Below are positions 1 through 3,000 of a DNA stretch of 64,000 nucleotides, piece after piece. A program made the position numbers. Positions within the stretch are counted from its first letter, which is position 1. Every line of letters begins with the position of its first letter. Source of the DNA: Escherichia coli O157:H7 (GTDB lineage Bacteria; Pseudomonadota; Gammaproteobacteria; Enterobacterales; Enterobacteriaceae); NCBI RefSeq assembly GCF_013167455.1, contig NZ_CP038328.1; one strand, 5' to 3'.

Positions 1-3000
1 CGCACCCGCCCAGCGGTCAGAACGCAGGGCAAGACCAATTTCCACATTGGCATGTTTTGACATGAAGCCACGAAATGCTTCCTCACCAGCCTCCCGGGCT
101 TTACGGTACTCCCGGTACAGAAAAGCCTCATCCACCGAATAACCGAGATTCGGGTTAACCATGGCGAGGTTTTCCATCAGCAGGTGAGCCCCGCTTTCCA
201 CCATTTCAGGAGGATGCTCAAAAATCACCGGCAGAAAGTGCGGATCATGAATTTTGCCGTCACGGACATCCCGGGCGTACTGCAGTTTCTGTCTGAACAC
301 CCCGGCTGGCGGCTCATTCGACTGGGTGGTCGTATACACCACAAACCCTTCCGGGCGGGAGGCAAGGCCGCCTATGGCTTCACGTAACATGTCCTCCGCT
401 TTGTACTGCTTGCCAAATAACCACAGTTCATCAATCAGCGTCCCCACGGACTTGATACCGGATACCGTATTCGGATCGGCAGCCACCACCTTCAGGGTGG
501 TGTCCGTCACCCTGTGGGTGATGGTCCGGATATGTGTCTGCACCTGACAGAGGTCATCCAGATCATCGTCCCGTCGTACCATATCCCTGGCAGGGTTGAA
601 GGCGTTAGCCGCCACCTCCACGGTCGGGGCCAGAATGGTGTAGCCCGCCGCCTGCCGCCAGTTCAGTAACAGCGCCGTCATCATGATCCCGGCAGCCAGC
701 GTGGACTTGCTGTTTTTCTTGGGGATAAGGATAAAAACTTCCTTGATATGGCGTACACCGGTCTGCGCATCGTAGGAGCCAAACAGGGCCGCCACCAGGT
801 CAAACACCCACTGTGCGCAGGACTCCCCGAACGTCGGGCTGCCCGGTGCATCCACAATCCGCAGTTGTTTAAAAATCGCCAGGGCATGTGCGGCCTGCTC
901 CGGATAAATCGGAGCCGGAATAATCGACAGCCCCTTTTTCAGGCGCTCTGCCCAGTCCGGGCAGGCCGTGCTCCACACAGGTATCATCCGTTGCCCTCAT
1001 TATCATTATTCACCACCAGGCGGGGTGGTGGTGGCACCGCAAAACGGTTAGCCGCTTTTTTCGCCGCGTCACCTTTTGCCGATTTTTTACCGGCATCCCC
1101 TTTTTTGTGGTGCGTGAACTGCGCCAGCTTATAAGCCGCATCCAGCGCCAGCCTGGGGTCGGTATTAATGTTCTCCACCAGAAGACGCCCCATCGCTTTC
1201 ACCGGATCGGGAAGACCGTCCTCCATATACTCAATACCAGGAGATATCACCACGGGCGGTGGCATCTCCGGATTTGTTTCGTCCGGCTGTGGTATTGCAG
1301 CCGCCTCACGGCGACGGGGTTTATCCTCCGGCTCTGATTTTTTCTGCCGGTAAACAGGAACCTCATCCACCTCCACCGTCTCGCACTGTTTACGGGCTAT
1401 AAACGCAAGCACCTCCGGATCTTTTGCCAGCTGCGAGCCTTTAACCCTGGCTGTCTTCGCCGAATAACCGGCGGCAAGGGCTGACGCTGTTTTGTTTTTC
1501 CCGGACATGAGCGCCAGCGCAAATTTTCGTTTTTGCGTTGTCAGCACAGCCTCCTCCCGGGTCCAGAACGCACTCAGCCGGGTATGGTTCAGCCCATTTT
1601 TCCCGGCGTCTCATGCCGCAAATGTTAACTGCTGCCTGGTTAACATTTGCTGAAAAAGCCTGTTAACATTTTTTCCGCACAACAAACTGAATAATAAAGA
1701 TAAAAACCGCAAAAATGCCCGGGCAGCCAGTTAACATGTTAACTGCCCTGAAACGGGAATTTTTTCTCTGCGTGAGAGGGGGCGCGGTGTCCAGGGCGAT
1801 CGTTTTTTTTCGCCGGATGATCCCCCCCGGGTCTGGTCACAGGCCAGTGATTCCGTCGGCCCTGAGCGTGCCATCAGGAAGCTCAGGCAACGTCGGATCA
1901 GGCATACCACTCGCCGCTTCACTCGCTGACTTCTGGCGATGGCATTCAGTACAGAGGGTCCAGAGGTTCGTCTCCTCATTACCACCACCGAACTGAAGTG
2001 CAATGCGGTGATCGAGTTCACTGTCACAAAGGTCAACCACGCGTCTACAGAGACAACAGTGTCCGGCATCCCTCCGCCAGATACGACGTTTGAGGGAAAC
2101 CCGGGCACTGCCACTGACACGACGCTGTTCCCCCCTCAGGACATTTATCCGCCGGGTGTTCAGAGTTTTGATTCTGCCCGGTAACGTACGAAGCACAGCC
2201 ATGTAAAATCCTCGCCATATAGCTTGTCACCAGAGGAAAGAAAATGTCATCGAAAAACCGGCCCCGCAGAACAACAACCCGCAACATCCGATTTCCAAAC
2301 CAGATGATTGAACAAATTAACATCGCTCTTGACCAGAAAGGTTCAGAAAATTTTTCTGCGTGGGTCATTGAATCTTGCCGCCGGGAGCTGGCAGCAGACA
2401 TAAAATATGCCCGTCAGTTGACTATAAAAAAGAATGATACACAGTATGCTCTGCGATGGCTGTTCATATAACTATTTCTTTATATTGCTGAATTTATAAA
2501 AACTCACAGACATTAGCTGTATTAATTCCGAATTGAAATAATCAGCCATATAGAATAAAAATAAAGCATAACAATAATAATCTTCTACCCAATCAGTACA
2601 TTACTGCTGTGACTCCAACACGGCAGTTTTTTTATTGAACAGATTCCAGTTTCTTCCACCATCGCACCGGACGGGCGACCATGAGGGGAGAACGCCGCGC
2701 TCCGTTTACGCGGTAAACCCCGGTGTGTATCGTTTTTGATTATCCCCGCACACTCTCGCAGAGGAGTCTCCCTGTCGGGCTGCGGTCTCTGTTAATGCAG
2801 GAATACGGCGACGATACGGCGCATCAGCAAAACTTAGTTCAGGCACTGAGTGCGGATATAGTCCTGTGCCCCTTCCAGCTGCTTCTGCATTGTCATCAAC
2901 CGTTCTCTGAGGATGAAATAATCCCGTTCAGCGGTGTCTGCCAGTCGGGGGCCGGTTGCATTATCCACGCCGGAGGTGCCGGTGGCTTCACGCACGGTAC

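Follow-up and report, generated by a model that had tools for sequence, protein, structure and literature searches.

A probable cos packaging site with a five-box array, most likely read by the small terminase, in an Escherichia coli O157:H7 prophage

In a prophage of Escherichia coli O157:H7, the 289-bp gap between the genes for an HNH endonuclease and the small terminase TerS (positions 1548-1836, minus strand) is probably a cohesive-end (cos) packaging site. The gap lies in a 64,000-nucleotide stretch of contig NZ_CP038328.1 (assembly GCF_013167455.1), called the window here. We consider it likely that the site belongs to a long-tailed lambdoid prophage of the O157:H7 type, with late genes of the Pankowvirus/BP-4795/Shiga toxin (Stx) phage type and an HK97-like, HNH-assisted terminase, and that five repeats with a GTTAAC core, hereafter boxes, form a cosB-like array bound by TerS. 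An earlier note on this DNA had proposed a candidate cos region with an HK97-like layout, its repeats flanked by HNH and terminase genes. That proposal is borne out by the gene order (HNH 1837-2202, terS 984-1547 and terL 1-987, all minus strand, with a TerL of the HK97 type) and by a near-identical relative, Lys8385Vzw, which PhageTerm classed as cos and whose ends fall in the homologous intergenic region. The note's further suggestion that the repeats are small-terminase sites has gained comparative support from conservation, satellites, co-variation and the TerS domain; the binding itself we infer.

The cut is placed by homology to Lys8385Vzw, which was sequenced from induced particles and whose first 229 nt, to terS, are identical to the window at 227 of 229 positions. 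PhageTerm assigned it to the cos phages with 10-nt cohesive 3′ ends and with CGCCCCCCCT as cos sequence at the end of the genome (PMC7946995). The record starts CTCACGCAGAGAAAAAATTCCC... and ends ...GGACACCGCCCCCCCT, and the junction, which joins ...GACACCGCCCCCCCT to CTCACGCAGAG, is homologous to window 1776/1777, within the HNH-terS gap. Ends mapping elsewhere, or headful packaging, were the outcomes that the earlier note had named as fatal to a cos site; in this relative the question is answered in favor of cos. By the same homology, 1776 would be the first position of the virion left end, which would extend towards terS, with a predicted 10-nt 3′ cohesive end 5′-CGCGCCCCCT-3′ at 1777-1786 on the minus strand. 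The predicted cut thus falls inside the interval flagged by the earlier note but outside the repeats, 34 bp from the nearest of them and upstream of them in the packaging direction, so that the repeats occupy a cosB-like position: the distance from cut to terS is 229 nt, and the box array spans +34 to +155. The cut position in this phage group is already published in the Lys8385Vzw report, and neither the Pankowvirus papers searched nor sequence-string searches yielded a published end map beyond it. The phi330 record carries a note on "cohesive ends", which accounts for a terS feature divided between the two ends of the record and is no end map.

Two conserved elements surround the predicted cut. 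The putative cleavage site lies in the cos core, CTGGACACCGCGCCCCCT followed directly by CTCACGCAGAGAAAAAATTCCCGTTTC (1750-1794, minus strand), as does an A-tract at +12 to +17; after the cut, positions +9 to +22 form a conserved A-tract block. Farther upstream, a G7 run followed by ATCA (1822-1828, minus strand) precedes the predicted cut by about 45 nt. The comparison with HK97-family cos sequences that the earlier note had recommended recovers this element some 42-45 nt ahead of the cut in both systems; in HK97, a G9 run with ATCA stands 42 nt before the right end. The G-run is possibly a cosQ-like or nuclease-positioning element. Separately, an IMG/VR isolate-assembly contig begins TCTCACGCAGAG..., one base before the predicted cut, which could reflect either reads that include phage DNA ends or a break in the assembly at the C-run; it lends the cut position weak support.

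The repeats themselves are well defined. The earlier note had counted five in both orientations within 125 bp, and the 8-mer ATGTTAAC/GTTAACAT indeed occurs five times, in both orientations, within 122 bp (1622-1743), with GTTAAC hexamers found by sequence scan at 1624, 1639, 1662, 1730 and 1738. Boxes 1 and 2 form an 18-bp palindrome, CAGTTAACA abutting TGTTAACTG (1728-1745), with GTTAAC at 1738-1743 and 1730-1735 and the 8-mers at 1736-1743 (plus strand) and 1730-1737 (minus strand). Box 3 (ATGTTAAC, 1662-1669, minus strand; extended form AAAAAATGTTAAC) is unchanged in phage variants and satellites. Box 4 (ATGTTAAC, 1639-1646, minus strand; extended form GCAAATGTTAAC) and box 5 (ATGTTAAC, 1622-1629, plus strand, reading GTTAACATTTGC on the minus strand) lie in opposite arms of a perfect 12-nt inverted repeat, GCAAATGTTAAC/GTTAACATTTGC, at 1618-1629 and 1639-1650. 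Five 8-mers in 122 bp are far beyond chance: shuffling gave an expectation of 1.9 ± 1.4 copies for the entire window, which contains nine, a count that no shuffle out of 100 attained. The boxes are spaced 8, 68, 23 and 15 bp from center to center. The spacer between what we treat as a distal pair and three proximal boxes (1670-1727, no strand) reaches 85% A+T and is possibly a bend or architectural element; within it, a block TCTTTAT-ATTCA is partly conserved in satellites.

GTTAAC is also over-represented across the window, with 30 copies against 13.6 ± 3.6 expected, or 25 without the five in cos. Some 60 nt ahead of an early-region open reading frame (ORF) that starts at 21633, GTTAACTGGTTAAC (21563-21576) has its hexamers spaced 8 bp apart, like those of the box pair in cos. 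This pair, in the phage early region, and a second at 62823-62836, inside a response-regulator gene (near 62250-63017) that we take to be narL, were set aside as unrelated to cos.

A scan of viral contigs for the core GGACACCGCNCCCCNTCTCA retrieved at least 120 loci at which it lies ahead of terS, and these fall into five classes. The core is common to classes A-E among the matches listed, and in the same set a G-run of 6-11 precedes it by some 37-45 nt in classes A-D; of the three distinct class E sequences, two share this feature. Class A is the type of the phage described here, with five GTTAAC boxes and 229 nt to terS. In class B, which comprises Salmonella phage FSL SP-016 and many others, 39 nt separate the cut from the beginning of terS, whose start codon is embedded in GT(T/A)AAC(A/G)TGTTAAC, and one more GTNAAC stands between G-run and core. 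Class C consists of E. coli satellites with AAAAGTTACAC twice, class D of A/T-rich contigs with AAGTTAAA two or three times, and class E of GC-rich contigs that carry a different terS and no obvious repeats. Because the distal box pair of the window (1728-1745) is homologous to the class B terS start region, class A looks like an expanded version of class B. A box between G-run and core, GTNAAC or ATAAAC, occurs in 47 of the 48 distinct class B sequences among the matches listed (for example FSL SP-016, 2489-2600 of its sequence); given this box and the position of the start codon, TerS binding in class B could overlap the translation start of terS itself.

Close phage relatives are too uniform to distinguish boxes from spacers by conservation: five boxes are present in 70 of 72 distinct terS-upstream sequences, of the other two one lacks a single box and one ends at a contig end. 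The distinction therefore had to come from satellites. A PICI-like satellite, an island of E. coli MS 21-1 inserted at tRNA-Pro between yejM and yejO (L216, 10800-12650; also L130, L133 and L219-L222), encodes an integrase, RepA helicase, SSB, PerC, a capsid protein, a decoration protein and a Nu1-like small terminase, to which the window TerS shows no similarity; it has no Terminase_2 terS. Two lambda-type cosN sites (GGGCGGCGACCT near 10830 and an inverted copy near 11700) surround its Nu1/Rpp-like gene. The same arrangement of two lambda-type cosN sites around a Nu1-like gene is known from EcCICFT073, for which PMC6739421 and PMC6092414 describe only those two sites. The MS 21-1 island has a third cos-like site, of the HK97 class, at 12340-12575, with the G-run, the core and all five GTTAAC boxes.

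This third site was compared with the phage site on a gapped alignment, as a 1-nt indel separates the copies. With the window and five satellite copies aligned, every one of the 38 box columns is invariant, whereas only 52 of the 91 columns in the spacers are (Fisher p 5e-8). Core columns -18 to +27 are 98% identical between phage and satellite copy while the flanks diverge, and homology stops just after the last box (box 5) on one side and, apart from the G-run, just before the core on the other. A satellite that relied on a helper TerS would have to retain exactly what that TerS reads. The satellite-type third site, at a query coverage of at least 80%, is found in 50 of 5426 complete E. coli genomes.

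The same comparison bears on two accounts that deny the boxes a part in packaging. They might be non-functional relics, the distal pair descending from an ancestral terS start and the others from duplications that accompanied an insertion of about 190 bp between cos and terS. The class B start codon does sit in GT(T/A)AAC(A/G)TGTTAAC at the position of the window box pair, and the present terS start, GTGCTGAC, resembles ATGTTAAC. Relics would decay, however, and the boxes are invariant where 43% of spacer columns vary; all 27 distinct core-carrying class A sequences among the matches listed keep the five boxes at fixed spacing. A hydrophobic 24-codon ORF (MLTGCPGIFAVFIFIIQFVVRKKC, 1662-1737, minus strand) that begins at an ATG inside box 2 is down to four codons in the satellite copies, so it is probably no gene, and the boxes are nevertheless kept there. 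We regard an origin as mere relics as very improbable.

An equally slight chance attaches to a role in terS expression, with the repeats acting as operator, promoter or RNA hairpin on translation. The 12-nt inverted repeat can form a hairpin (RNA fold z-score -2.2), and one sigma-70-like match is built from the boxes. That match, the sole promoter-like one, is weak, antisense and points away from terS; the promoter scan of the region gave no sense-strand match and the terminator scan no terminator-like site. Satellites keep the boxes without a terS downstream, and lambdoid phage late genes are in any case read through from an upstream late promoter.

With the boxes most likely acting in packaging, the question becomes which protein reads them, and here co-variation with TerS is informative. 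In class B, TerS is 63% identical to the window TerS and has nearly the same predicted recognition helix, and GTTAAC is kept. Where TerS is more divergent (33-46% identity to the window TerS over the N-terminal 70 residues) and the core is kept, other repeats stand at the place of the boxes: AAGTTACAC twice or AAGTTAAA two or three times, with AAGTTACAC and AAGTTAAAG as the repeats recorded among such elements. The class D TerS, 33% identical over these 70 residues, has boxes of its own. Class C satellites (L223, 3446-11944; L092-L095) occupy the same attachment site as the MS 21-1 type and encode an integrase, a RepA/AAA_25 helicase and a capsid-like protein, together with their own Terminase_2 TerS of 162 residues (46% identical to the window TerS) and no TerL or HNH; they keep the phage cos core and carry AAAAGTTACAC twice instead of GTTAAC boxes. 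Since their boxes have changed and their core has not, and TerS is the only one of the three proteins they encode, the box sequence appears tied to TerS. On this comparison, the core would be the part shared across the family and the boxes the part that changes with TerS.

The boxes could instead be required in cis for packaging at cos and be bound by the HNH protein, by TerL or by a host architectural protein (IHF, Fis). Conservation in satellites by itself demonstrates a cis requirement and not the identity of the binder, the spacer contains an IHF-like match (ATTCAGTTTGTTG, 1692-1680, one mismatch), and the TerS of HK97 has one A-tract binding site, at +15 to +29, an A-tract block at +9 to +22 being present here as well. 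The IHF match, though, is at background level (0.6 expected per 289 bp), so that an IHF site is not established; host factors would not account for class-specific box sequences within E. coli; and in class C it is the boxes, and not the core, that have changed along with TerS in elements that encode neither TerL nor HNH. We therefore think another binder unlikely, and retain TerS as the most probable one.

The TerS protein fits such a role. The terS gene (984-1547, minus strand; 187 residues) has a GTG start and a Shine-Dalgarno sequence GGGAGGAGG at 1550-1558, and its product belongs to Terminase_2 (PF03592, E 4.5e-8, 34.3 bits against a cutoff of 26.1; PHROG 641, E 2e-68), the SF6/SPP1 type. 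Residues 1-55 are modeled by AlphaFold at pLDDT >90 as a four-helix domain, for which the top Foldseek matches are 2cmp and 4zc3, the DNA-binding domain of SF6 G1P (TM 0.82, root-mean-square deviation 1.6-2.5 Å, probability 1.00, E 0.02); full-length SF6 TerS is also among the best structural matches. The link to SF6 needed the structure model, because a PDB search by TerS sequence alone returned weak matches (E 0.3-0.7). The model thus identifies the predicted N-terminus as an SF6-type helix-turn-helix DNA-binding domain. TerS is not of the HK97 gp1/P27 type, in which a single site is recognized by threading of the DNA through a channel; being a Terminase_2 protein, it probably recognizes DNA differently from HK97.

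The other two proteins point to HK97. The HNH endonuclease gene (1837-2202, minus strand; 121 residues; PF01844, E 5.3e-6; PHROG 589, E 1e-37) immediately precedes cos in the direction of late transcription, giving the minus-strand order HNH, 289-bp gap, terS, terL. The window edge cuts terL (1-987, minus strand) after its N-terminal 329 codons, and this fragment matches TerL_ATPase (PF03354, the HK97 type; PHROG 7622, E 1e-153); in relatives whose TerS is 66-80% identical, full-length TerL has 553 residues with TerL_ATPase PF03354 and TerL_nuclease PF20441. The type of TerS and the match of its DNA-binding domain to SF6 G1P would also suit headful (pac) packaging as in SPP1 and SF6, with the boxes as pac boxes. 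This is hardly credible in view of the PhageTerm cos class with 3′ ends for the near-identical Lys8385Vzw, the HK97-type TerL with its adjacent HNH gene, and a core and G-run conserved as in HK97.

Taken as a cos site with a TerS-bound array, the region would work as follows. Terminase and HNH would cut concatemeric DNA at the GC-rich core, as found for the near-identical relative and assigned here by homology, with HNH assisting TerL in cleavage as it does in HK97. The cut would leave the 10-nt 3′ overhang CGCGCCCCCT, and the packaged left end would begin at 1776, cross the repeats and lead into terS. An oligomeric Terminase_2-type TerS would bind the boxes at +34 to +155 with its N-terminal helix-turn-helix domains, while the A/T-rich spacer of about 60 bp may allow a bend through which the distal pair and the three proximal boxes meet one TerS assembly. 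Such an assembly could place TerL and HNH on the adjacent core, conferring packaging specificity and a start towards terS, and the A-tract block might provide a second contact.

Several points weigh against this account. TerS binding and a packaging role for the boxes are conclusions drawn from comparison, and the co-variation comprises only three or four TerS classes, which differ in other proteins too. The box spacings are not in helical phase. Class B manages with one or two boxes that overlap the terS start, so five boxes are no general requirement. TerS may also, or instead, contact the A-tract block at +9 to +22, by analogy with HK97 TerS and its site at +15 to +29. The satellite copies represent one lineage, and as some overhangs are altered (L219 and L220), not all of them may be functional. 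Finally, virion ends have been mapped in one relative only, Lys8385Vzw, by software on short reads.

Among known systems, HK97 is the closest in its cutting apparatus. It shares the HNH gene directly upstream of cos, terS and terL directly downstream, the HK97-type TerL, a 10-nt 3′ overhang (known here from the relative) and a GC-rich cut site with an ...ACCGC(C/G)... motif, although the HK97 end, which joins ...GACCGCCGCCAAA to GTTTGAATTT, matches the window core only in part. The HK97 terminase is reported to be assisted by the HNH protein gp74 (Kala et al. 2014). The two systems differ in recognition: the HK97 TerS is gp1, whereas that of the window is an SF6/SPP1-type Terminase_2 protein with an N-terminal helix-turn-helix; HK97 has a single 15-bp TerS site at +15 to +29, against a five-box array here, and its cut lies 49 nt from terS, against 229 nt. 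In HK97, HNH has been found to assist TerL cleavage and TerS to bind +15 to +29 (Chechik et al. 2024, PMC11331095). The HNH-cos-terS/terL layout, the TerL type and the G-run/ATCA architecture of the window are thus those of HK97 and the TerS type is not, for which reason we place the region among the HK97-like, HNH-dependent cos sites but assign it a recognition module of another kind.

The organization of the array recalls lambda, in which cosB comprises the sites R3-I1-R2-R1, bound by gpNu1, with IHF. In both cases, short repeats in both orientations lie between nick site and terS and are split by an A/T-rich segment. The cosB repeats of lambda are the part that confers specificity, and the nick site is shared among relatives; we propose the same split here. 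PICI satellites exploit the division between cosN and cosB (PMC6739421). Lambda nonetheless differs in having a winged-helix Nu1 as its TerS, a fold unrelated to the SF6-type helix-turn-helix, and in leaving a 12-nt 5′ overhang with no need of HNH, compared with the 10-nt 3′ overhang of the relative; a Nu1-type TerS, a 12-nt 5′ overhang and an IHF site I1 were not found for the window.

SPP1 and SF6 share the TerS family and the fold of its DNA-binding domain, and in SPP1 a number of short repeated boxes surrounding the site of cleavage are bound by TerS. These phages package by the headful from pac and have terminal redundancy, in contrast to the defined cohesive ends of the window phage's relative. 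HNH-dependent cos packaging with satellites that copy a helper cos also has a parallel in staphylococcal phi12, phiSLT and SaPIbov5 (Quiles-Puchalt et al. 2014, as cited in PMC6092414), in other hosts and with other sequences; the E. coli satellites differ in carrying the window-type cos as a third site beside two lambda-type ones. The site can be seen as a mixture of three known systems: its cut site and HNH resemble those of HK97, the split between nick site and specificity array recalls lambda, and TerS is like that of SF6/SPP1.

Upstream of HNH, on the opposite strand, is a gene for a DUF3950 (YlcI/YnfO) protein (2244-2471, plus strand). It was considered as a box binder and is unlikely to be one, because lambda keeps a close homologue near its right end, beside a cos of another type, and yet has no GTTAAC in its last 1 kb. 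Putative late and early genes of the prophage fill roughly the first 26 kb of the window, with tRNA-Arg and tRNA-Met at 7970-8202 and an integrase-sized ORF at 24863-25993; putative chromosomal genes follow at about 26000-64000, including two tRNA-Tyr at 50875-51253. No ORF sized like an stx A subunit appears among the window ORFs of at least 150 residues, no direct search for stx having been made.

The region is widespread. It is 100% identical to E. coli O157:H7 chromosomes, 99.9% identical to Stx2a_WGPS6 and 92-94% identical to BP-4795, 1717 and 2851 as well as to many Stx1a and Stx2c phages, which are lambdoid and long-tailed and belong to the genus Pankowvirus. Of 5426 complete E. coli genomes, 1276 contain it, in as many as seven copies each; none of the genome records listed annotates it. 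Among long-tailed phages, those with Stx1 or Stx2c and some with Stx2a carry it in their late-gene module, as do many other prophages of enterohaemorrhagic E. coli (EHEC). In PPompW prophages, such as LC567822.1 (L003, 1046-2504), ISEc20 of the IS110 family abuts the cos G-run; Q and tRNA genes directly adjoin the other side of the element, from which it follows that the lysis genes and HNH are missing. Neither the boxes, nor the way they vary between classes, nor their copies in satellites were found described in the literature searched.

Tentatively, and with somewhat more doubt than confidence, we suggest that one core is common to a broad HNH-dependent cos family whose specificity comes from exchangeable TerS boxes. 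Satellites would tap this family either with a TerS and boxes of their own or by copying the five-box array of a helper as a third cos site, in which case two unrelated terminase systems, including that of long-tailed Stx/EHEC prophages, could package one island. Knowledge of the cut site and of the likely specificity boxes would allow virion ends to be annotated correctly, and may help to predict which prophages and satellites are co-packaged or mobilized by Stx-type phages. Box swaps would offer a simple handle on how an SF6-type TerS works in an HNH-dependent cos system.

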